A stretch of 64,000 nt of DNA, taken from Nitrospira japonica (lineage in GTDB: Bacteria > Nitrospirota > Thermodesulfovibrionia > Thermodesulfovibrionales > SM23-35). Below the pieces are notes generated by a model that saw only the letters and a program-made list of their open reading frames with translations, was not told the origin of the DNA and searched no databases. Position 1 is the first letter of the stretch. Each line of letters starts with the position of its first letter. The translations under genes were made by a program, and so were the position numbers. Shown here piece by piece: positions 41,813-62,272 of the stretch. The stretch is taken from contig DYFC01000034.1 in NCBI GenBank assembly GCA_020725385.1, positions 64,001 to 128,000 on the forward strand. Direction: 5' to 3'.

Positions 41813-43912
41813 TTAAAAAGTTCTTGATGCTTTAAGATTAAAACGTCTTGTTTCACTTATAGCATATCCTTCATCCAGTTTTGTTGAAGTCAACTCAAGT
41901 GAGAAAAACATCTGTCTCCATGTGTAATACAAATCAAATTCATAATCTCTTGTTCTTGTATCTGTATAGAATTCTCTATTTGTTGTAAGAATGCCGGTAT
42001 TCCACCATCCTTTGCTCCTGAATTCCTCTCTCCACCATGCTGTAAAATTAAGTCCTCTGAAGAAAGTATAATTAAACCTTCCTTCATAATTGTATTTTCT
42101 TATATCCTGTGAATTGGTCTGACCTGTTGTGTAACTTCCGCTTAATATTATTGAGCCTCTTTTTAAGATTGGATATCTAAAATGGCATGATGCAGTATAG
42201 TGTCTTATTTTCTTTGCATTCTGGCTTTCACCCAGCCATACAGATTCAAAGGAATTTAATTTATTGCCCGAGGAATCCATAAAACGGGCTTCTAATTCAA
42301 CAGACCATGAAGCTTTCCAGGGGCCTCTTACATGGGAGCCTAACCGGGCTTTATGTTCAACTGTGGAAGAATTATCTCCTAAGTCGGATTCGGTTTCATA
42401 AGGGGAATTGAAAGAATATTTAAAAGTCCTGTAACTGAATCTATAGCCGGCAAATATCTTGCCCCATTTATATTTTCTTGTTGACAGGTTTAAATCCAGA
42501 CTATTTTCCATGAAACTTAAATCATTGCTATTTTTTTCCTGAGAAAGAATAAAGTTATACAACGCATTAAAGTCATATATTTTGTAAGGTTTGCCGTAGT
42601 TGAAGGTAGTGTCAAGTTTATATGCGTAACGATCATCATCATTAACTGTTCCATATTGAATGCGCATATTAGCTCTCGCAAATATTCTGTTGGAAATTCT
42701 ATAACGCCAGATGCCCGCAAGGGTATATCTGTCCGAAGTTTGCTCACCGGATTTTGAAGATGTAAATTCAAAATTATAATCATGGTAGATATTTTTTAAT
42801 GGCTGGGGTTTATAATCAGCAGAAAAACTAATAAGTCTGGATGTATCGATTTTATAATATTGAAATGCAGTCCATAGAGAATTGCCTTTATTAAACTGGG
42901 TTTTTGTATTTAAGGTTATTCTGGTTGAACTGAAATCTCTATTGGGATATGAATATTTGGATAATGAATAAACGAGAAAATATTTTGTTTTGATTGCATT
43001 CCAGTTGCCGCTTAAGGTGGTGTCCAGTTTATCAATACTGAATTTATATTCAACTTTTTCTTTTATAATGTCGAAACCTCCCAGAAATTCATCATAGGCT
43101 CTCTTACCGGTCATCCTATCGGTTGAATAGTCCCAGTGTGAATATTCTATGCGAATATTAGGAAATTTTTTTAAGGTTGAATAGAATCTGGCGCCGTAAA
43201 AATTTGATACAGAATCCCCGTCAAAGACTGTAACACCATCCATTTTGTTGTATGAACGTGTAGCAAAAACATCAAGCGAGACAGGCCTTGTTGGCAGAAA
43301 TGTAGTTGATAATGTGTATGAAATATCCCTTGCATTCCAGGTCGAATCATCGGCTGCTTTATATTTAGTTTTACTGTTGTTAAATGTGATTTCGGCAAAA
43401 TAGTTAAGTAGTTTTGGGTGGTAAATGAAACCATTTGCTCTTAGTCTGAATTTTTGCTCGAATGTTTGTGAAGAAGATTTGAATTTATTCCCCATATATT
43501 TAGTTTCGGTATTATAATCTTTATAGTTAAGCTCGATCAGTCCGCTAAAACGTAAAGAGTATCTTGCCTTAACCGGGCTACCGTATAATTGGGTATATGA
43601 AAGAGCCCCTGCAGTTGAAGCGCTTTCACCACCGGATTTAGACATGGATTTTGACATTGATTTGGACATGGATGACATGGATGACATTGATGACATGGAC
43701 GACATGGATGACATGGATGACATGGATGACATTGATGACATAGCTAATGAAAATTCAGATGAGGTCAAGACAAATATAAAACATAGAGAAAAAGAGAGAA
43801 GAATGAAACGAAAGAATCTACTTAATAAAAAATTTGATATTAGATGCCATAAAGTGATGCAAATCAATAAAATGGAAAAATAGACTGGCTTTTTGAGTTC
43901 TATTATTGTCAT
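41813..43912 (-). CDS. Putative outer-membrane beta-barrel (porin-cytochrome conduit component) with (SSM)n N-terminal repeat
   Basis: Hydrophobic leader, aromatic-rich alternating beta strands, C-terminal NLKASRTF; located among cytochromes. Confidence 0.65.
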   Translation of the reverse strand: MTIIELKKPVYFSILLICITLWHLISNFLLSRFFRFILLSFSLCFIFVLTSSEFSLAMSSMSSMSSMSSMSSMSSMSSMSSMSKSMSKSMSKSGGESASTAGALSYTQLYGSPVKARYSLRFSGLIELNYKDYNTETKYMGNKFKSSSQTFEQKFRLRANGFIYHPKLLNYFAEITFNNSKTKYKAADDSTWNARDISYTLSTTFLPTRPVSLDVFATRSYNKMDGVTVFDGDSVSNFYGARFYSTLKKFPNIRIEYSHWDYSTDRMTGKRAYDEFLGGFDIIKEKVEYKFSIDKLDTTLSGNWNAIKTKYFLVYSLSKYSYPNRDFSSTRITLNTKTQFNKGNSLWTAFQYYKIDTSRLISFSADYKPQPLKNIYHDYNFEFTSSKSGEQTSDRYTLAGIWRYRISNRIFARANMRIQYGTVNDDDRYAYKLDTTFNYGKPYKIYDFNALYNFILSQEKNSNDLSFMENSLDLNLSTRKYKWGKIFAGYRFSYRTFKYSFNSPYETESDLGDNSSTVEHKARLGSHVRGPWKASWSVELEARFMDSSGNKLNSFESVWLGESQNAKKIRHYTASCHFRYPILKRGSIILSGSYTTGQTNSQDIRKYNYEGRFNYTFFRGLNFTAWWREEFRSKGWWNTGILTTNREFYTDTRTRDYEFDLYYTWRQMFFSLELTSTKLDEGYAISETRRFNLKASRTF
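43635..43742 (-). repeat. Coding tandem repeat, 9-nt then 12-nt units
   Basis: About 8 copies of ATGTCATCC/ATGTCATCA, then 12-nt units encoding MSKS x3. Confidence 0.9.
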
Positions 43913-53574: not shown

Positions 53575-55341
53575 ATGGTACCTAAGTGGGTTGAAAAAAG
53601 GTATAAGGAGCTATGGAATTCATATAAAGATTCTCCTTTTCGCTTTGAAGATGCAGCAGATGTCCTCAGAAAGAAAATGAAAGATAGCGAAGAACAGGTA
53701 AATGTGATTCTTTCTGAGTTAAGAAAAGGGGGATGGCTAAAGGTAGATTTTGATCCAGAAGATGCAAGAAAAAGAATATACACATTAAAAAGCAGTGAAG
53801 AAATCATTACTCAGATACTTTCTATAAATAATAGCAAGCTAACCAGAAGTGACCTTGAAGGTCTATTAAAGAAAGCAGCCGATCTTATTAGAACACGTGT
53901 TGATTATGCATTTATCCTTTTTCTTCTATTTTATAAAAGGATCAGTGATAAATGGGAAAATGAGTTTGAAAATGCTTATAAGGAAGCTATTGAAGATGGT
54001 CTGAACGAAGAAGAAGCAAAGGAAGAAGCAAAAAATTCAATCTATCATGACTTCGATATTTCACAAGATCTTCTTTGGGAAAATATAAGAAAAGACCCTG
54101 CTCGATTACCAGAAAATTTTTCAAAGGCTATGAAGATTCTGGCAGAAAGAAATCCTGAGTTAAAAGATGTTTTTGAAAATGTTGATTTTGTACAGTTCAC
54201 TACAAACAGGGAAAATGTTGAAATACTAAGACAGCTCGTTGAATTATTCAGTGCCAAGCCGCTACATCACGTCTCTCCTGATATTCTTGGTGATGCATAT
54301 GAATGGATTTTACGCTACTTTGCTCCACAGAAAGCTAAAGAAGGAGAAGTTTATACACCCAGAGAAGTTATAAAACTCATTGTTGAAATACTTAGCCCCC
54401 GACCAGGTGAAAGCGTTTATGACCCTGCACTCGGATCATCAGGCATGTTAATAGCTTCATATAAATATGTAAAGGATGAAAAAGGGAAAAGCGAGGCTGA
54501 TAAGCTTTTTCTTTTTGGTCAGGAAGCCAATCATAAGACCCTTGCGTTGTCGGAAATGAATCTTTTTATCCATGACATAAGAAATGCTCAGATCGCGCTT
54601 GGCGACACCTTGCTTTATCCGAAATTTAAGGAGGGGGAAGGAATCAAGACCTTTGATGTTGTTATTGCTAATCCACCATGGAATCAGGATGGATATGCAG
54701 AGGAGACTTTGAAAAAAGCAGAGTTCTGGAGGGAGAGGTTTAATAAATACGGGTTCCCGCCAAATCAATCAGCAGACTGGGCATGGATAGAGCATATGCT
54801 GTCATCTGCAAACAATAGAAATGGAAGGGTTGGTGTTGTTATTGACAATGGCTGTCTTTTCAGAAGCGGAAAGGAAAAGGCAATAAGAACAGGAATCGTC
54901 AAAGATGATCTTATAGACACTGTTATCCTTCTACCTGAAAAGCTTTTTTATAACACGGGTGCACCAGGAGCAATTATCATTCTTAACAAAAACAAACAAA
55001 AAGAAAGAAAAGGAACGATTTTATTTATAAATGCAAGTAAAGAATATGAACAACATCCAGAGGTCAGAAAGCTAAATCGCTTAGGTGATGAGCATATCAA
55101 TAAAATTGTGAAAGCATACAGAGAATTCACTAATATTGACGGTTTCTCTATGGTTGTAGCGCACGAGAAGATAAAAGAAAATGACTATAATCTGAATGTT
55201 ACCCTTTATGTTTTTCCTGAGGAAGAAACTGAAGAGATAGATATAGAGAAAGAGTGGGAGGAAGCGCATAAGATCGAAAAAGAGCTAAAGGAGATCGAGA
55301 AAAAAATTGAAGACTATCTCCTTGAATTAAAGGAAGGCTGA
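53575..55341 (+). CDS. hsdM: Type I R-M methyltransferase with N-terminal winged-HTH extension
   Basis: LGDAYEWIL, GEVYTPREV, YDPALGSSG, ANPPW; first about 80 aa MarR-like (LSELRKGGWL..DPEDARKRIYTL). Confidence 0.93.
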   Translation: MVPKWVEKRYKELWNSYKDSPFRFEDAADVLRKKMKDSEEQVNVILSELRKGGWLKVDFDPEDARKRIYTLKSSEEIITQILSINNSKLTRSDLEGLLKKAADLIRTRVDYAFILFLLFYKRISDKWENEFENAYKEAIEDGLNEEEAKEEAKNSIYHDFDISQDLLWENIRKDPARLPENFSKAMKILAERNPELKDVFENVDFVQFTTNRENVEILRQLVELFSAKPLHHVSPDILGDAYEWILRYFAPQKAKEGEVYTPREVIKLIVEILSPRPGESVYDPALGSSGMLIASYKYVKDEKGKSEADKLFLFGQEANHKTLALSEMNLFIHDIRNAQIALGDTLLYPKFKEGEGIKTFDVVIANPPWNQDGYAEETLKKAEFWRERFNKYGFPPNQSADWAWIEHMLSSANNRNGRVGVVIDNGCLFRSGKEKAIRTGIVKDDLIDTVILLPEKLFYNTGAPGAIIILNKNKQKERKGTILFINASKEYEQHPEVRKLNRLGDEHINKIVKAYREFTNIDGFSMVVAHEKIKENDYNLNVTLYVFPEEETEEIDIEKEWEEAHKIEKELKEIEKKIEDYLLELKEG

Positions 55342-55343
55342 TA

Positions 55344-56381
55344 ATGTTTAAGCCCAATTTTCACTATACAGATAAAATCGTTAATGATCTTACCCAAATC
55401 GCTGTTGCCAGAGAAGTCATTTTAAATTCTCCCTTCATTCCAAAATGGGAAGTCTCTCTTAGGAGAGAAGCGATAATCAGGAGTGCTCACTCATCTACAG
55501 CGATTGAAGGAAACAGACTTTCACTTGAACAGGTTAGTGAACTGGCGCACGGACGCGAGGTAATGGCAACCCGGAAAGATAAACAAGAGGTCTTAAATTA
55601 TCTTAGGGTTCTTGAATCCATTGACAAGTTGACTGACGGCAAAAAAATTACTGAAAAAGATGTTTTAAAGGCTCATAAAATGATAACACAAGATACCCTT
55701 GAGGATCCTTCTGATTGCGGTGTCTATCGTAATCGTTACGTAATAGTCGGGAACAGATTGACTGGAGAGATTATTTTCAGGCCACCTTTGAATGAAGATG
55801 TCCCGAAATTGATGAAGGCATTGATTGAGTGGTTGAATTCTCCTGAAGCACAGGCTCTCGATCCTGTTATTGAGGCTGGTATAGCTCACTATGAATTTGT
55901 GAGAATCCATCCTTTTGTAGATGGCAATGGCAGAACTGCCCGTGTTCTTGCCACTTTGATACTTTATCTGCGGGGCTTTGATACCAAACAATTCTTCTGT
56001 CTCGATGACTACTACGATTCAGACAGACCATCGTATTATCGGGCTCTCCAGAGCATTGATCAGAAAACCCTCGACATAACTTCCTGGCTTGAATACTTTG
56101 TTACAGGTGTTAAACTGAGCATTGCTACTGTAAAGGAGAGAGTTATACGACTTAGCAGCGAAAGATTACGAAAAACCAAAAAGGGTCAGATTGCCTTGAC
56201 TGAAAGACAGATGAGAATTGTGGAGAAGATGATTCAGAACAATAAAGTCAGTATTAGTGATGTTGCAGAGATGTTCAAAATAACAAGGCAAGCTGCACTA
56301 AAAGAGATGACCAAATTGTCGAAACAGGGGGTTGTACAACTCATTGGAAAAGGCCGAGGCGCTTACTATGAGCTGGTTTGA
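55344..56381 (+). CDS. Fic family protein with C-terminal HTH
   Basis: HPFVDGNGRTAR catalytic motif; SSTAIEGN inhibitory-type motif; C-terminal wHTH. Confidence 0.93.
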   Translation: MFKPNFHYTDKIVNDLTQIAVAREVILNSPFIPKWEVSLRREAIIRSAHSSTAIEGNRLSLEQVSELAHGREVMATRKDKQEVLNYLRVLESIDKLTDGKKITEKDVLKAHKMITQDTLEDPSDCGVYRNRYVIVGNRLTGEIIFRPPLNEDVPKLMKALIEWLNSPEAQALDPVIEAGIAHYEFVRIHPFVDGNGRTARVLATLILYLRGFDTKQFFCLDDYYDSDRPSYYRALQSIDQKTLDITSWLEYFVTGVKLSIATVKERVIRLSSERLRKTKKGQIALTERQMRIVEKMIQNNKVSISDVAEMFKITRQAALKEMTKLSKQGVVQLIGKGRGAYYELV

Positions 56382-56681: not shown

Positions 56682-57236
56682 ATATATAACCCAGCGATAT
56701 ACCATCGCTGTTCGATACGATTAAAAAATTATGATTATTCACATACAGGAGCATATTTTGTGACCATATGTTCATGGAACAGAGAATGTATGTTTGGAGA
56801 TGTTGTGGATGGTGAAATGCGTTTAAATAAATATGGACAGATTGTGAAGAAAGAATGGTTACAGACAGGAGACATTCGCCAACTTGTGGAATTAGATGAA
56901 TTTATTGTAATGCCTAATCATGTTCATGGGATTTTGGAAATAACCGATTATGGTAGGGGCACGTTGCAACGTGCCCCTACGAAAGAACATTTTGGCAAAC
57001 CTGTACCCAATTCATTACCTACAATTATTCGTTTATTTAAATCCGCATCAACAAAACAAATAAACATATTACGCAACACGCCTGGTTTTCCTGTCTGGCA
57101 ACGGAATTACTATGAACATATCATCCGCAATGAAGATGAATTAAACCGTATCCGAAAATACATCATAACTAATCCATTAAAATGGGATGAGGATGAAAAT
57201 AATCCGATAAATATTAAACATTATGGGGTTTTATAA
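56682..57236 (+). mobile_element. REP-associated tyrosine (Y1/HUH) transposase, RAYT/IS200-like; canonical start codon apparently lost
   Basis: Frame extends upstream of GTG 56760 as IYNPAIYHRCSIRLKNYDYSHTGAYFVTIC; MPNHVHGI, VWQRNYYEHIIR, YIITNP. Confidence 0.85.
56953..56980. repeat. Perfect 28-bp REP-like palindrome inside the RAYT coding sequence
   Basis: GTAGGGGCACGTTG|CAACGTGCCCCTAC, read in frame as GRGTLQRAPT. Confidence 0.9.
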
Positions 57237-57253: not shown

Positions 57254-58609
57254 ATGAAACTGCAAGAATTCAAACAAACAGAGATTGGAAGAATACCAAA
57301 AGAGTGGGAAGTGGTAAGGCTTGGTGATGTTATCACATATATTAAAGGCAAAAAGCCAGCAAAAATATTAGAAGAGTACAAAGAAAATTGTTTACCTTAT
57401 CTATCAACGGAATATTTGCGAAAAAATAAAACAACAACTTATGTGCCTATTTCAGGTGATGTAGTTTCTGTCAATGATGAGGATTTAATTTTGTTATGGG
57501 ATGGTTCAAATGCTGGAGAAATCTTTTTAGGAAAAAGAGGGGTTCTCTCTTCAACTATGGTTAAATTTGAATTGAGAGAAAATAAATATATTCCTAACTT
57601 CTTATTTTATTTATTAAAAATAAAAGAAAACTGTTTAAAGGGACAAACAAAAGGAACGGGAATACCTCATGTTGATGGAAATGTTTTAAATGCTCTTCAC
57701 CTCCCCCTTCCTCCTCTCCCTGAACAGAAAAAAATTGCTGAGATTCTTTCGACGGTTGATGAAGCAATACAGAAGGTAGATGAAGCCATAACGAAAACTG
57801 AAAGATTGAAAAAGGGGTTGATGCAGGAATTATTAACAGGTAGACGAAGAGTAGTAGATAGCAGACAGCATATGGCATATAGTAGACAGCAAATAGTAGA
57901 CAGCATACAGCATACGGTAGAAAGGGAAAAAACTGATACCCCCCAGTCTACAGTCTACTGTCTACAGTCTACTGAATACAAGGAAACCGAAATCGGAAGG
58001 ATACCGAAGGAGTGGGAAGTAGTGAAGATCGGCGATATCGCCTTAGATTTTTTAGGTGGAGGTACGCCGTCTACCTCTAATCAAAGTTATTGGGATGGTG
58101 ATATTGCATGGATGACAAGCGCTCATATAAATGATAGAAACGTAACAACGGGACAACGATATATTACGAAAGAGGGGTTAAGAAACAGTGCTGCCAATTT
58201 AGTTCCAAAGGATAATTTACTCATTGCGACAAGGGTTGGTATAGGCAAAGTTGCTGTAAATAAAGTTGATATTGCTATAAGTCAAGATTTAACAGGCGTG
58301 ATTATTGATAAAACGAAAGCGATGAGCGATTTTTTATATTGGAACATTAGCACACAGGAAAGAAAATTAAAATCCTTAGCTCAAGGAAGTACTATAAAAG
58401 GTATTTTGAGAGAGGAGTTGGGGAAATTAAAGATCCCCCTTCCTCCTCTTCCCGAACAGAAAAAAATCGCTGAAATCTTAAGTACGGTTGATAGGAAAAT
58501 AGAGTTGTTAAGAGAGAGGAAAAAAAGATTCGAAAGAATAAAAAAAGGTTTGATGAATGATTTGCTTACGGGAAGGAAGAGAGTCAAAACAGCATACAGT
58601 AGTCGGTAA
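57254..58609 (+). CDS. hsdS: Type I R-M specificity subunit with an in-frame repeat insertion in the central linker
   Basis: Two TRDs, TEIGRIPKEWEVV x2, PLPPLPEQKKIAEILSTVD x2, KKGLM.xLLTG x2. Confidence 0.93.
   Translation: MKLQEFKQTEIGRIPKEWEVVRLGDVITYIKGKKPAKILEEYKENCLPYLSTEYLRKNKTTTYVPISGDVVSVNDEDLILLWDGSNAGEIFLGKRGVLSSTMVKFELRENKYIPNFLFYLLKIKENCLKGQTKGTGIPHVDGNVLNALHLPLPPLPEQKKIAEILSTVDEAIQKVDEAITKTERLKKGLMQELLTGRRRVVDSRQHMAYSRQQIVDSIQHTVEREKTDTPQSTVYCLQSTEYKETEIGRIPKEWEVVKIGDIALDFLGGGTPSTSNQSYWDGDIAWMTSAHINDRNVTTGQRYITKEGLRNSAANLVPKDNLLIATRVGIGKVAVNKVDIAISQDLTGVIIDKTKAMSDFLYWNISTQERKLKSLAQGSTIKGILREELGKLKIPLPPLPEQKKIAEILSTVDRKIELLRERKKRFERIKKGLMNDLLTGRKRVKTAYSSR
57851..57974. repeat. 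Heptamer inverted-array element inside hsdS
   Basis: About 11 x AYAGYAK units, short spacer, 4 x CWGTCTA complementary units; 41 codons in frame. Confidence 0.85.
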
Positions 58610-59116
58610 CCAGGAGAAAACAAATATGCAAACATCAACAGGCAGACAGGGAAAAGCAAATAGGTTCGAAGATTTAGAGGTATGGAAGAAGTCTCATGAA
58701 TTGGTGTTGAAAATTTATAAGATTACAAAAGAATTTCCTTCAGAAGAAAAATTTGGATTAGTGTCGCAGATGCGGCGGTCTGCTGTTTCTATCCCAGCAA
58801 ATATTGCTGAGGGATTTAAGAAAAGAGGTCTCAAAGATAAATCAAATTTCTATAACATAGCGCAGGGTTCTCTTGAGGAGTTGAGATACTATTTAATTTT
58901 ATCAAAAGATCTTGGATATTATGACAATAAAAAGGATTTTCATGAATTAATGGAAATAATTGGAAAAATGCTTTATGGACTGGTTAAAAGTATACAGTAA
59001 ACAGCATACAGTAGACAGCATACTGGGAGGCAGTAAAAACACGCAGCAAAAAGTAGATGGAGGAATAAATCAGTTTACAGTTTACAGTTTACCGTTTACT
59101 GTTTACTATCTGCTAC
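58587..59116 (+). mobile_element. Putative heptamer-repeat cassette carrying the four-helix-bundle gene
   Basis: 16-bp direct repeat AAACAGCATACAGTAG at 58587-58602 and 58999-59014; heptamer arms on both sides; complementary CWGTTTA array at 59071-59116. Confidence 0.55.
58626..59000 (+). CDS. Four helix bundle protein (23S rRNA IVS protein family)
   Basis: FEDLEVWKKSHEL..IYKITKEFPSEEKFGLVSQMRRSAVSIPANIAEG..IAQGSLEE; ATG 58626 with GGAG RBS. Confidence 0.92.
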   Translation: MQTSTGRQGKANRFEDLEVWKKSHELVLKIYKITKEFPSEEKFGLVSQMRRSAVSIPANIAEGFKKRGLKDKSNFYNIAQGSLEELRYYLILSKDLGYYDNKKDFHELMEIIGKMLYGLVKSIQ

Positions 59117-59125
59117 ATAAGAGAT

Positions 59126-62100
59126 ATGTCAAACTTTAGTGAAAAAACCCTTATCGAGGATTATATCCTTCAACGTTTGATTGAAAAAGGCTGGAAGTTT
59201 GTTCCTGCAGACAATCTTGAGCGGGACAGTTATAAGGAGCCTCTGCTTGTTCCAAATCTTTCGAGGGCAATTAGAAGAATCAATACAGCAAAAGGCACAC
59301 GGCAAACAACAGACAGGGAAAGTAAAGCCACTTTCAGTATACATTCTATTGTCTCCAGTTTACAACTCGGTGATGAAGAAATTAACAGGGCGTTGAATGA
59401 ACTTATGCTCACGGGTTCAGGCATTGAAGGTTCAAAAAAGATTTTAAGTTTCTACAAATTCGGTATCCCTGTAAAATTTGAAAAAGAGAGGGTTGTTAAT
59501 TATATCCGCCTTTTTGATTTTAACGACATTAGTAACAACGAGTTTATTGTAACAAGGCAGGTCAATTATGACGGCAGGGAAAGGATAAGAACAGACTTAG
59601 TCCTCTATATTAATGGTATTCCTCTTGTAAACATTGAATGTAAAAACCCTGCGAGCATTTCTGAAAACTGGTATAACGCATATAAACAGATCAAAGATTA
59701 TGAAAAGATTGTTCCTGAACTCTATAAGTATATTCAAATTGGAGTTGCAGCTGAAAGTGTTGCCAAGTTCTTCCCTGTTGTTCCCTGGCAAGAGGAAGTC
59801 AAGATAAATGAATGGAAGGTTGATAATAAAGATTCTATGGATTCAATTATCGAGATGCTCTCACAAGACTCACTCCTCGATATTATAGAAAATTTTCTGT
59901 TCTTCAGGATAGAGCGCGGGGAAGCAACGAAAGTTGTAACACGTTATATGCAATATAGAGCAGCAAATAAAATAGTTAACAGAGTCAAAGAGTTTTTAGA
60001 GGCGACAAGGTCAATAGGGTCAATAGAGTCAAAGGAGCAAGGATACGGCACTCTAGACTCTTTAGACCCTATGACTCTTAGACCTAAAAATAAAGGGCTT
60101 ATCTGGCACTGGCAGGGAAGCGGTAAAACCCTCACTATGATATTTGCCGCAAATAAACTTTATTACTCAAATCTGCTTGAAAATCCAACGGTCTTTTTTA
60201 TTGTTGATAGAGTTGAAATAGAGGAACAGCTTTACAAAGAATTCTACTCGTTGGATATTGTTGAACCAGAAATTATCGGCTCAGTCTGGGAACTTAAGGA
60301 GATTCTTAAATATGATGACTATAGGGGCAAGAGGGGTATATTTATAATCTTAATTCATAAATTCAGACAGGAAGAACTGAGAGAGTTGCAAAAAGAGATT
60401 GAACAGGTTTCAGAACTCAAAGAAACCATAATGAACAGAAAAAATGTAATTGCTTTTGTGGATGAGGGACATAGGACACAATATGGAACTCTTGCAGCGC
60501 AAATGAAAGCCATGCTTAAGAACGCCTTTTTCTTCGCTTTTACTGGCACGCCTATATCAAAAACGGGAAGAGATACCTATATGGAATTCAGTTATCCTCC
60601 CGATGAACTTTATCTTGATAGATATTTTATTACTGACTCGATTAAAGACAAGTTTACTGTCAAAATAGTTTATCAGCCACGACTTGAAAAGGAAGCTCAT
60701 CTTAAAAAGGATATGTTGGAAGCCTTTTTAGAAGCGGAACTCGAAGAAATCCCTGAGGATATACGAGATGATATTCAAGACAAAGTCAAAAAAAGACTTA
60801 ATGCAATAAAGATATTCCTTGAAAATCCGCAAAGAATAAAAGTAATCGCTGAGGATATAGCAGCACATTTTAAAGAAAACATTGATGGCAAATTTAAGGC
60901 TATGGTTGTAGCAGGAAGCAGAAAAGCTTGCGAGCTTTACAGAAAGGAATTATATAAACATTTACCTGAGGAATACGTGCATACAATTATTACTCTCGGC
61001 AGAGAGGAAGAACCTTTACTGAAGGAAGCAGTGGCTGAAGCAAAGGCACAGTATGGGAAAGATATAGAAGATATAAGAAAAGAAACAATTGAAAAATATA
61101 AAGAAGAGGAATTCCCCAAAATATTGATTGTCACTGATATGTTGCTTACAGGTTTTGATGCTCCGATACTTCAGGTTATGTACCTTGACAAGCCTCTTAA
61201 GGAACACAGACTTTTACAGGCAGTAGCGAGAACAAATAGACCATATAGTGATTTAAAAAATGCTGGGGTTGTGATTGATTATGTTGGTGTGTTGAAAGAA
61301 TTCAAGAAAGCCCTTGAGATGTATAGCGAGAATGATATAAAAGGAGCGCTTTTTAGTTACGACGACATAAGAGAAGAATTTATCCTCTTAATTCAGGAGA
61401 TTCTTGAGATATTGAAAGATGTGCCCAGGAATTACGAAAGAGGAACGTTACTCAAAGCTATAGAGATACTCACTTCCGATGAAGAAAAAGAGAAAGATTT
61501 TGTCGAGAAATATAAAAATCTAAGAAAGACTTTTGAATTGCTCGGACCTGATGAGATTAAACTTGAGTATTTTGAGGATTATAAATGGCTATCTTCTATT
61601 TACACTTATTACATAAAAGTAGTTGTTCAAAAACCTGTTTATGGAGACATCATCCAGAAATATTACGATAAAACCATAAGATTTATTCATAAGGCTACCG
61701 AGATAGATACATTGGATAAAGACCTCCCTATAATTTCATTTGACAGCGATTATCTCGAGAAGTTAGAAGACAAAGTTAAAAATAAACAAGAAAAGGCAGC
61801 AAATATTCTCTTTGCTCTTAATAGATTAGTGCTTGTGGAGAGACATCGCAATCCCATCTATGAATCATTGGTGGAAAAAGTGGAAAGACTACTTGAGTTA
61901 TGGAAGGAAAAGACAAAAGATTATAAGAAGATTTACTTAGAAGGTACAAATATATTTAAGGATATTGCAACACTCTCTGAACGACAAAAATCTTTAGAAT
62001 TTTCAGATGCTGAATATGCAATGCTCCTTGAACTTGAGAAAAAGTTAGATGGTAAAGTTGAACTTATTAATGAAGTGAAGAAACTTTCAAAGCAATTAAA

Positions 62101-62272
62101 ACAATATATGTTTTCTGGATGGATCAATCAAACAACAGTAAAAAAAGAAGCAGAGCGTGAAATAAGAAAATTTGTCAGAGGGATAAAAGCAAAATATAAT
62201 CTCACTTTTGATGAAATGAACGATTTGCATGATAAGTTAGTAGAAAGTGTTAAAAATTATGGAACTGCGTGA
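59126..62272 (+). CDS. hsdR: Type I R-M restriction subunit with two in-frame repeat insertions
   Basis: DLVLYINGIPLVNIECK nuclease, HWQGSGKT, DEGH, FTGTP, TGFDAP, QAVARTNR. Confidence 0.95.
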   Translation: MSNFSEKTLIEDYILQRLIEKGWKFVPADNLERDSYKEPLLVPNLSRAIRRINTAKGTRQTTDRESKATFSIHSIVSSLQLGDEEINRALNELMLTGSGIEGSKKILSFYKFGIPVKFEKERVVNYIRLFDFNDISNNEFIVTRQVNYDGRERIRTDLVLYINGIPLVNIECKNPASISENWYNAYKQIKDYEKIVPELYKYIQIGVAAESVAKFFPVVPWQEEVKINEWKVDNKDSMDSIIEMLSQDSLLDIIENFLFFRIERGEATKVVTRYMQYRAANKIVNRVKEFLEATRSIGSIESKEQGYGTLDSLDPMTLRPKNKGLIWHWQGSGKTLTMIFAANKLYYSNLLENPTVFFIVDRVEIEEQLYKEFYSLDIVEPEIIGSVWELKEILKYDDYRGKRGIFIILIHKFRQEELRELQKEIEQVSELKETIMNRKNVIAFVDEGHRTQYGTLAAQMKAMLKNAFFFAFTGTPISKTGRDTYMEFSYPPDELYLDRYFITDSIKDKFTVKIVYQPRLEKEAHLKKDMLEAFLEAELEEIPEDIRDDIQDKVKKRLNAIKIFLENPQRIKVIAEDIAAHFKENIDGKFKAMVVAGSRKACELYRKELYKHLPEEYVHTIITLGREEEPLLKEAVAEAKAQYGKDIEDIRKETIEKYKEEEFPKILIVTDMLLTGFDAPILQVMYLDKPLKEHRLLQAVARTNRPYSDLKNAGVVIDYVGVLKEFKKALEMYSENDIKGALFSYDDIREEFILLIQEILEILKDVPRNYERGTLLKAIEILTSDEEKEKDFVEKYKNLRKTFELLGPDEIKLEYFEDYKWLSSIYTYYIKVVVQKPVYGDIIQKYYDKTIRFIHKATEIDTLDKDLPIISFDSDYLEKLEDKVKNKQEKAANILFALNRLVLVERHRNPIYESLVEKVERLLELWKEKTKDYKKIYLEGTNIFKDIATLSERQKSLEFSDAEYAMLLELEKKLDGKVELINEVKKLSKQLKQYMFSGWINQTTVKKEAEREIRKFVRGIKAKYNLTFDEMNDLHDKLVESVKNYGTA
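59285..59364. repeat. Degenerate heptamer inverted array inside hsdR
   Basis: ACAGCAA AAGGCAC ACGGCAA ACAACAG ACAGGGA ... CAGTATA CATTCTA TTGTCTC CAGTTTA. Confidence 0.65.
59981..60086. repeat. 8/9-mer inverted array inside hsdR
   Basis: AGGTCAATA GGGTCAATA GAGTCAAAG ... CTCTAGACTC TTTAGACCC TATGACTC TTAGACCT. Confidence 0.7.

Follow-up and report, generated by a model that had tools for sequence, protein, structure and literature searches.

The window analysed here, a stretch of 64,000 nt from contig DYFC01000034.1 of a Nitrospira japonica assembly (GCA_020725385.1), contains a type I restriction–modification (R-M) operon in which a gene for a four-helix-bundle (4HB) protein, of the 23S rRNA intervening sequence (IVS) protein or S23p family, lies between hsdS and hsdR and is bordered by short tandem repeats. 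In the canonical PF05635/TIGR02436 subfamily, genes typically come as a packaged unit, of which this gene (58626-59000) is one copy: usually, an open reading frame (ORF) of about 120 codons, with no promoter of its own evident, is flanked by arrays of about four to five copies of a 7-nt (less often 8- or 9-nt) unit whose sequence is specific to the locus. By analogy with 23S rRNA IVSs we favour, with some reserve, the reading that the unit is an IVS-type, probably mobile cassette that is co-transcribed with its host genes, its arms pairing in the hsd RNA and being cut there by RNase III. An earlier note, made from the letters of the window, had described the gene as packaged in a heptamer-repeat cassette and proposed an undescribed mobile or intervening element; that interpretation is partly supported, in that its core holds, and holds more widely than was proposed.

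The genome contains eight PF05635 matches. When their flanks were read by eye, seven of the eight showed short tandem repeats upstream and the reverse complement of these downstream, with a unit that differs from copy to copy, and five of the eight reached a lag-periodicity score of at least 20 out of 28 (the 99th percentile of 1,000 random windows being 19). Genome-wide, there are 43 strict arrays of period 7 and 16 of period 9, compared with 2, 4, 3, 0 and 0 for periods 5, 6, 8, 10 and 11, and 36 of the 62 arrays can be paired with a complementary one no more than 300 nt away. The enrichment of 7-9-nt arrays beside other members of the family that the earlier note had anticipated is clear: 7 of the 62 arrays are found no more than 150 nt from a 4HB gene, where 0.13 would be expected (53-fold enrichment), and the remaining 55 do not adjoin one. 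A divergent subfamily provides a negative control, since this genome's copy on contig C37 and all four relatives' loci of that kind (orthologs L021 and L022; L023 and L024) are armless.

The same packaging is found in relatives and across phyla. Among 31 genomes of the order, this one included, PF05635 is present in 24 (0-12 matches each), and 17 of the 25 evaluable loci of relatives passed the periodicity score, their flanks showing arm-antiarm pairs with many different units. A wider sample, drawn from one genome per GTDB species with a peptide pattern derived from a seven-sequence alignment, comprised the best 80 of at least 598 matches to that one pattern and therefore represents the subfamily near the window protein, not all of PF05635. 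These 80 loci come from Planctomycetota, Chloroflexota, Nitrospirota, Verrucomicrobiota, Acidobacteriota, Bacteroidota, Patescibacteria, several proteobacterial classes and others; 59 of them passed the periodicity score, in most cases with 7 as the best period, and array density was 3.2 per kb in the 130-nt flanks versus 0.26 per kb in the rest of the same loci (12-fold). The architecture is conserved across phyla despite the change of repeat unit.

To describe the arms, 104 loci were retained with an ORF of at least 95 aa, both flanks of at least 80 nt and no N; loci with broken ORF calls (L093, L099), partial, interrupted or divergent ORFs (L007 at 2298 and 2962, L003, L028, L023, L019) and copies of this genome's own loci or of a twin (L005, L029, L026) were dropped. 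Tandem Repeats Finder (TRF) detected an array of period 6-9 on at least one flank in 93 of the 104 loci and on both flanks in 50, and the period was 7 in 53 of 72 upstream arms and 63 of 80 downstream arms. Arms have a median of 4.4-4.6 copies (interquartile range about 3.7-5.3) and a median length of 31-33 nt. Complementarity between the two flanks exceeded the 95th percentile of mismatched locus pairs in 83 loci and the 99th percentile in 56, and in 12 loci same-sense repeats are also common to both flanks, as in the window. The arms are polar with respect to the coding strand: a purine content above 60% is found in 72% of upstream arms and one below 40% in 1.4% of them, and 67.5% of downstream arms are less than 40% purine. 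Arm sequence follows protein identity only above about 60%, and arm complementarity is kept at all distances; since arms resemble each other between loci only above that identity, they are inherited with the gene and diverge faster than it does. Stop triplets are not avoided overall in the arms (upstream, 203 versus 171.5 expected; downstream, 79 versus 76.7).

Two other measures of pairing were set aside. Duplex folding of 150-nt flanks discriminated weakly (control s.d. 9 kcal/mol; four of this genome's eight copies fell below the 5th percentile, the window copy not among them) and was therefore replaced by local alignment against mismatched-locus controls, and counts of 7-mers shared between flanks were noisy in AT-rich DNA (control mean 2.1) and were abandoned.

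In the window itself, the perfect 16-bp direct repeat said to bracket the gene is exact: AAACAGCATACAGTAG occurs at 58587-58602 and 58999-59014 as the sole exact copies in the 64 kb, and a third copy with two mismatches lies at 57905-57920 within the hsdS array; matches with at most two mismatches average 0.05 in shuffles, and none of 100 shuffles reached three. The upstream arm encodes the last hsdS codons (K T A Y S S R, then stop, from the translation), and further heptamer-like units, which the earlier note had missed, run on into codons 1-12 of the 4HB ORF (58628-58664), so that tandem heptamers adjoin the ORF start. The downstream arm begins within the final codons of the 4HB ORF. TRF places it at 58985-59023 (period 7/14), and an inverted-repeat search pairs 58989-59025 with 59071-59107 (37 nt, 76% complementary, 45 nt apart); the arm had been thought to continue to about 59060, which stands as far as 59025, the sequence beyond being degenerate. 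The complementary antiarm claimed from 59071 was recovered by TRF (59071-59106, period 7, 5.1 copies, 93% matches), and its predicted duplex with the downstream arm is stronger than in shuffled sequence (-26.6 kcal/mol, z-score -2.86, 2 of 300 shuffles).

The earlier note had also suggested that the upstream arm could pair with the distal antiarm and loop out the whole gene. For this copy the idea was dropped: in the minimum-free-energy fold of 58570-59125 no stem of arm and antiarm closes around the gene, and the upstream arm and the antiarm form a predicted duplex no stronger than chance (-19.0 kcal/mol, z-score -0.87). Because that pairing is at chance and the pairing of downstream arm with antiarm is supported, the supported structure here is a hairpin between the gene and hsdR; the gene sits in the 5' arm, not in the loop, and this hairpin is accordingly the sole well-supported stem. 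Elsewhere in the family, a stem that encloses the ORF is the norm (83 of 104 loci). The gene is read in the sense of hsdM, hsdS and hsdR, presumably within their transcription unit, and has an AGGAG 9-13 nt ahead of its ATG; promoter-like sites around it show no excess (10 versus 8.8 +/- 3.0 in shuffles). No Rfam family matched anywhere in the 64-kb window, and the element is flanked by hsdS and hsdR and not placed within an rRNA gene.

The 124-aa protein is a canonical member of the family, with 134.8 bits to PF05635 (cut-off 33.8; profile positions 1-105 of 106) and 129 bits to TIGR02436 (cut-off 24), and its nearest solved relative by sequence is XCC0516 (PDB 2gsc, E 3.9e-22). The 2gsc structure is a four-helix bundle assembled as a pentamer. 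Among 19 family sequences, Q48, S55, N59, E62 and E85 are invariant and R51 is nearly so; R51, S55, N59 and E62 make up R-x3-S-x3-N-x2-E, which is part of the family motif quoted in the available text of PMC3936711. There is a weak match to Avd, a protein of diversity-generating retroelements (DGRs; PF22296 bAvd, E 2.4e-10; NF033474, 34.9 bits, below the 80-bit cut-off). That the 4HB oligomer binds the arm repeats is a guess, and a doubtful one. The idea of 'five subunits times seven bases' was rejected as a finding and remains speculation, the arm copy numbers being compatible with it and non-diagnostic.

Across the loci, neighbouring ORFs are mostly co-oriented with the 4HB gene (58 of 73 upstream and 54 of 74 downstream, on crude ORF calls) and span about 100 unrelated Pfam families, mostly housekeeping, without a functional theme. 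Occupied junctions include sdhA|sdhB (the flavoprotein and Fe-S subunits of fumarate reductase/succinate dehydrogenase), pheS|pheT, subunits of carbon monoxide dehydrogenase/acetyl-CoA synthase (CODH/ACS) and cas4|cas1, and in relatives cassettes separate histidine-kinase from response-regulator genes and hisA from hisF. Armed cassettes were also observed inside genes, one within a histidine-kinase ATPase domain between the N box and the G1 box (L012:785-1166, genome G008) and one within an integrase-like ORF (L014:1489-1845, genome G006).

Comparison of orthologous sites confirmed the expected polymorphism between filled and empty states, as sites filled in relatives are empty in this genome. 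The hisA|hisF site is filled in two genera, with the same unit and the same boundaries, and is a 15-nt gap here; the histidine-kinase|response-regulator site (L002) and the L016 site, both filled in relatives, are empty here and without arms; the L011 site, again filled in relatives, holds a gene-less 9-mer array only; and the NHL-gene site is filled in relatives and here alike. One complete genome carries a pair of cassettes that share 97% identity across 499 bp and have unrelated flanks, each being bounded by the CRISPR repeats of one of two arrays with otherwise different spacers. Two of the present genome's own cassettes also fill spacer slots of CRISPR arrays, co-oriented with the repeats (C29:42369-43318, locus L217; C4:10221-10749). 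The C29 array, which lies on the same strand downstream of a type III module that includes Cas1, Cas2 and a separate reverse transcriptase, has eight repeats spaced 73-82 nt apart, except for one 480-nt interval that contains the cassette. At the same locus, after the last CRISPR repeat, a second arm begins before a different sequence.

Gene-less derivatives of the unit lie within the two genes that flank the cassette. The array that the earlier note had reported inside hsdS is an in-frame insert of about 39 aa where seven homologs (51-65% identity) hold a short linker, and the RNA fold of 57845-57990 is stable relative to shuffles (-31.6 kcal/mol, z-score -2.43); its arm and antiarm were also recovered as a pair by the inverted-repeat search. 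The insert sits precisely where the central conserved region gives way to the second target-recognition domain; the HsdS residues that precede it copy the C-terminus of the protein, and those that follow it copy the N-terminus. This resemblance suggests either a former intergenic hairpin between two half-genes or the product of recombination between hsdS copies. HsdS as a whole (57254-58609) reads like two fused half-subunits.

For the array reported in hsdR the outcome was mixed. Residues 54-81, in the N-terminal domain, are indeed an insertion relative to homologs of about 1001 aa; at 59285-59368, TRF found no array and the fold is no better than that of shuffles (z-score -0.42). A clearer arm-loop-antiarm occupies the same site in homologs P0123 and P0126, which argues that the window copy is a decayed one; P0125 and P0134 carry different short inserts there, and the site, which follows 'RIN' (window residues 51-53), has at least three states among homologs. 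A second hsdR hairpin, missed by the earlier note, is an insert relative to most homologs and folds well (-32.3 kcal/mol, z-score -3.75, 0 of 200 shuffles). When 30 relatives were searched with the HsdR query, only G017 matched, and HsdS was not found in G017 with the query used. The G017 contig (C347, loci L115 and L116) begins at HsdR query residue 82, just past the hairpin insert site. Among public runs, none of RNA was listed as carrying the locus. Contigs from four public DNA runs contain the filled form only, including that of a second strain 95-99% similar, and are short and break at arrays; since the G017 contig also starts after an insert site, the arrays appear to break short-read assemblies.

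Across nine related genomes, the dependence of gene-less arrays on 4HB genes is a trend only. Four genomes without a 4HB match have few or no period-7 arrays (G025, 1 in 400 kb; G028, 2 in 200 kb; G020, 0 in 200 kb; G029, 0 in 135 kb). This genome (G000), with eight matches, has 7.8 per 400 kb over the whole genome, and G024, with seven, has 22 in 400 kb; among the three with five matches, G012 has 5 in 200 kb, G019 none in 195 kb and G026 none in 200 kb.

Under the reading that we favour, the cassette would be transcribed as part of the hsd operon and its arms would form a stem of about 30 bp in the hsd RNA. By homology with S23p-encoding 23S rRNA IVSs, RNase III, for which this genome has a gene (rnc), would cut that stem, and such cutting would split the host RNA and set loose a 4HB message whose ends are paired. 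Presumably the entire unit, together with its arms, is mobile or once was, and it may spawn or leave behind gene-less hairpins; for the copies embedded in CRISPR arrays, it might be speculated that the neighbouring RT-Cas1 module takes up the excised RNA. A bolder and improbable extension would make canonical 4HB genes the autonomous form of an unrecognised class of mobile elements that has no known transposase: the oligomer would recognise its own arms by their tandem 7-nt units, whether in RNA or in folded single-stranded DNA, and promote the copying or insertion of the stem-loop into transcribed DNA, possibly by way of RNase III-excised RNA and a host reverse transcriptase or a Cas1-type integrase. 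Were this true, the element would be the source both of rRNA intervening sequences and of many in-frame gene-less heptamer hairpins.

Several observations weigh against the cassette reading. As regards mobility, no target-site duplication was seen at the filled and empty sites compared, no recombinase or other mobility enzyme accompanies the cassette, and the 25 leading Pfam families of the neighbours (58 upstream, 53 downstream) include no recurring recombinase family. The joint that a 412-bp deletion between the direct repeats would leave, which the earlier note had proposed to look for in reads, was not seen in the contigs of the four public DNA runs (from three studies), uncovered parts being uninformative. 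Gene-less arrays are tied to 4HB genes loosely, for two genomes with five matches lack them in the roughly 200 kb sampled and two of the four genomes without a 4HB match still have one or two. As regards RNA, the upstream arm of the window copy shows chance-level pairing with the antiarm, and the window hairpin is moderately stable (58975-59130, -32 kcal/mol, z-score -1.61, equalled by 16 of 200 shuffles). Mismatches in the stems of the family show no sense-strand G.U excess (99 G.U-type versus 154 A.C-type; per locus, 17 versus 26, P = 0.22), and so give no positive sign of selection on sense RNA rather than on DNA. RNA processing at this locus would be extrapolated from rRNA IVSs of distant bacteria, and the authors of the Coxiella study conclude that S23p is probably not translated there (PMC4990558, available text).

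An alternative interpretation is that the arms act as DNA, as hairpin or cruciform recombination sites of an attC- or REP/REPIN-like kind that are used by a host enzyme or by template-switching in replication, RNA processing being incidental. Cassettes are present or absent at orthologous sites with arms that travel with the gene, the near-identical 499-bp pair has different flanks in one genome, and the missing G.U excess is what double-strand-symmetric pairing predicts; moreover, the window copy resembles a gene inserted in one arm between 16-bp direct repeats, and 18 nt upstream of hsdS there is a RAYT-like ORF (NF047646, 68.8 bits, short of the cut-off of 80 bits). We consider this interpretation unlikely because the purine/pyrimidine polarity relative to the coding strand persists past the divergence of the unit, which a symmetric role in DNA leaves unexplained, because insertion is co-directional in operons, rRNA and pre-crRNA units, and because the neighbours' top Pfam families include no recurring recombinase and this genome's other Y1-transposase-like matches do not adjoin arrays. 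That the arrays are ordinary slippage-prone simple repeats, near the gene by chance or as an AT-rich intergenic by-product, might be read from the 55 of 62 arrays that lie away from 4HB genes and from the modest z-score of the window hairpin; it is hardly credible given the 53-fold enrichment beside this genome's own 4HB genes and the 12-fold enrichment within loci across phyla, the locus-specific complementarity relative to mismatched pairs, the consistent polarity and the dominance of period 7 over periods 5, 6, 8, 10 and 11.

The cassette might instead be a domesticated regulatory module, with a stem that controls the translation or stability of the 4HB message or the expression ratio of the flanking genes, and a protein that serves the host, for example by modulating R-M or CRISPR enzymes. 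Intact ORFs and conserved polar residues would suit such a role, as would the retention of the hisA|hisF and NHL-gene insertions across genera, the location of the window copy in an R-M operon and the reported enrichment of 23S_rRNA_IVP genes in cas loci (PMC3936711; PMC10910872, available text). We regard it as quite unlikely, because the neighbours are unrelated and mostly housekeeping, the family is patchy among close relatives (0-12 matches per genome), upstream arms show no excess of Shine-Dalgarno-like motifs (25 of 68 versus 33 expected from shuffles), and some copies are pseudogenised (this genome's own on C56; relatives' copies with internal stops).

PF05635/TIGR02436 is a very large family of small bacterial genes, previously noticed in rRNA intervening sequences and in CRISPR-Cas loci. 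On the reading of an IVS-type cassette, one element would tie together the fragmentation of rRNA by IVSs, the '23S_rRNA_IVP' genes of cas loci and genomic heptamer arrays, and would account for proteins, HsdS and HsdR among them, that contain in-frame hairpin inserts. The arrays also matter to annotators, as a source of assembly breaks and over-extended ORFs.

Table 1 Features of the hsd operon and its repeat-armed cassette in the 64-kb window.
Feature	Position	Strand	Details
hsdM	53575-55341	+	First gene of the host type I R-M operon; Pfam N6_Mtase 1.9e-113, HsdM_N
Fic/DOC-domain and helix-turn-helix (HTH)-domain protein	55344-56381	+	Between hsdM and hsdS
RAYT-like ORF	56691-57236	+	Between Fic gene and hsdS, 18 nt upstream of hsdS
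hsdS	57254-58609	+	Pfam Methylase_S 2.2e-60, two stretches
hsdS gene-less hairpin, purine-rich heptamer arm	57854-57921	+	TRF period 7/21
hsdS gene-less hairpin, antiarm (CAGTCTA units)	57944-57980	+	TRF period 7, 4.1 copies, 90% matches
Upstream arm, copy 1 of exact 16-bp direct repeat	58587-58602	+	
4HB gene (23S rRNA IVS protein/S23p family), 124 aa	58626-59000	+	PF05635, TIGR02436
Downstream arm, same sense as upstream arm, with copy 2 of 16-bp repeat (58999-59014)	58985-59025	+	TRF 58985-59023
Spacer/loop of downstream hairpin, degenerate heptamers	59026-59070	+	
Antiarm, CAGTTTA units, pyrimidine-rich	59071-59116	+	TRF; ends 10 nt before hsdR start codon
hsdR	59126-62272	+	TIGR00348 2.6e-187; HSDR_N, SWI2_SNF2, ResIII
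Gene-less hairpin insert, apparently decayed, hsdR N-terminal domain, residues 54-81	59285-59368	+	
Second hsdR gene-less hairpin, 9-nt units, in frame	59988-60082	+	TRF 60009-60032

The operon is co-directional throughout, in the order hsdM, Fic-domain ORF, RAYT-like ORF, hsdS, 4HB gene, hsdR and a YgjP-like peptidase gene (Table 1). The RAYT-like ORF has an HVH motif and a Pfam Y1_Tnp score of 22.1 bits, and its extended frame lacks an ATG start; a perfect palindrome, GGCACGT-N4-ACGTGCC, is located upstream of it (about 56643) and again inside it (about 56958), with three copies in the genome. Elsewhere in the window, 43634-43741, which follows a 12-nt array, is a tandem array of a 9-nt unit (GACATGGAT, 8.6 copies, 92% matches) that could be a coding repeat.

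Two further kinds of array were observed in the genome. A minus-strand operon on contig C45 (11000-30000), encoding multihaem cytochromes, NHL-repeat proteins and lipoproteins, has AGAGCNN/GCTCTNN heptamer arrays at gene starts; in the frame of the genes, the purine arm gives K/R/E/Q-rich repeats and the pyrimidine arm gives hydrophobic L/F/A/C/S runs that end in lipobox-like or AxA-like sites, and this composition and these ends make the arrays seem to be translated as the n- and h-regions of signal peptides. A separate 9-nt family (GTTTAC plus three variable bases, and its complement) accounts for about a dozen arm-antiarm hairpins (for example, C9:1960-2073, C45:12508-12634 and C3:22768-22811), one of which occupies the site of a relative's 4HB cassette.

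Several known systems share some of these features. Rickettsia palindromic elements, REP/REPIN sequences with their RAYT genes and the heptamer repeats of cyanobacteria (STRR) are short, hairpin-forming or heptameric and scattered through genomes, and some of them are tolerated in frame within proteins, as the hsdS and hsdR inserts are here. To our knowledge, each of these families has a consensus sequence and lacks an associated 4HB gene, whereas the unit of the 4HB arms differs at each locus and is repeated in tandem within each arm. The locus also departs from a REP/REPIN-RAYT system in that the palindrome beside the RAYT-like ORF is present in the genome three times and the heptamer arms differ between loci. 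Integron cassettes with attC are small ORFs that lack a promoter and carry an imperfect palindrome, variable in sequence and conserved in structure, and the window gene with its downstream hairpin between short direct repeats is similar in outline. Unlike integron cassettes, it has no cassette array nearby, the 4HB arms are short tandem repeats usually present on both sides, and the sites are scattered operon junctions; no integron integrase was seen among the annotated window ORFs around the locus, and no attC model was run.

The 4HB protein shares its fold family with the DGR protein Avd, of which it is a weak sequence relative. We know of no Avd genes with heptamer arms, and the window gene, unlike those of DGRs, has neither a reverse transcriptase nor a template or variable repeat beside it; the genome's single RVT_1 match, on contig C29, belongs to a CRISPR adaptation module beside cas1/cas2. 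Homology between PF05635 and Avd is discussed in PMC10053308 (available text). As for the 23S_rRNA_IVP genes of cas loci, a family member lies between cmr3 and cmr2 (PMC3936711, available text), and the likeness is that members are wedged within defence operons and that two of the present genome's copies lie in CRISPR arrays. The available text of PMC3936711 and PMC10910872 treats the gene as a candidate cas-associated function and makes no mention of flanking arms; the neighbours found here, by contrast, are mostly housekeeping genes.

Repeat-armed packaging is apparently a general and undescribed property of this very large gene family. In the full-text literature covered, outside which lie subscription journals and supplements, we found no description of tandem-repeat arms as a family-wide feature, of arm polarity, of armed cassettes at operon junctions or in CRISPR spacer slots, or of gene-less in-frame derivatives. 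The claim of an undescribed element nevertheless needs qualification: it stands for armed cassettes outside rRNA, and it does not stand for heptamers and an RNase III-cut stem as such, both of which are on record for the 23S rRNA IVS of Coxiella. There, according to the available text of Warrier et al. (PMC4990558), terminal inverted repeats build a stem that carries an S23p ORF in its loop, the S23p start is closely preceded by three or four tandem heptamers (GACAGAT), varying in number among strains, and cleavage of the stem by RNase III was shown in vitro, the ends being mapped by rapid amplification of cDNA ends (RACE). The same text cites Leptospira as also having an S23p-encoding IVS, together with a 1993 proposal that such IVSs are mobile and older proposals that they are relics of mobile elements, a selfish or mobile origin being a long-standing hypothesis; in candidate phyla radiation (CPR) bacteria family members lie in insertion sequences of 16S and 23S rRNA genes (10.1101/2024.02.27.582315, available text).

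S23p-encoding rRNA IVSs and the present cassettes have in common the protein family, the sense orientation within the host transcript, a size of about 430-490 nt and terminal inverted repeats, which in most cassettes are predicted to form a stem around the gene, and the Coxiella heptamers, too, lie upstream of the start codon. The cassettes differ in that the window element lies between two protein-coding genes of an operon and other copies lie in CRISPR arrays and at operon junctions, in that the window family has locus-specific tandem-array arms on both sides and gene-less in-frame derivatives, and in that the gene of the window copy, where upstream arm and antiarm pair no better than chance, is outside the best stem. 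The element is most aptly classed among the S23p-encoding intervening sequences, as a variant that resides in mRNA operons and CRISPR arrays rather than in rRNA.

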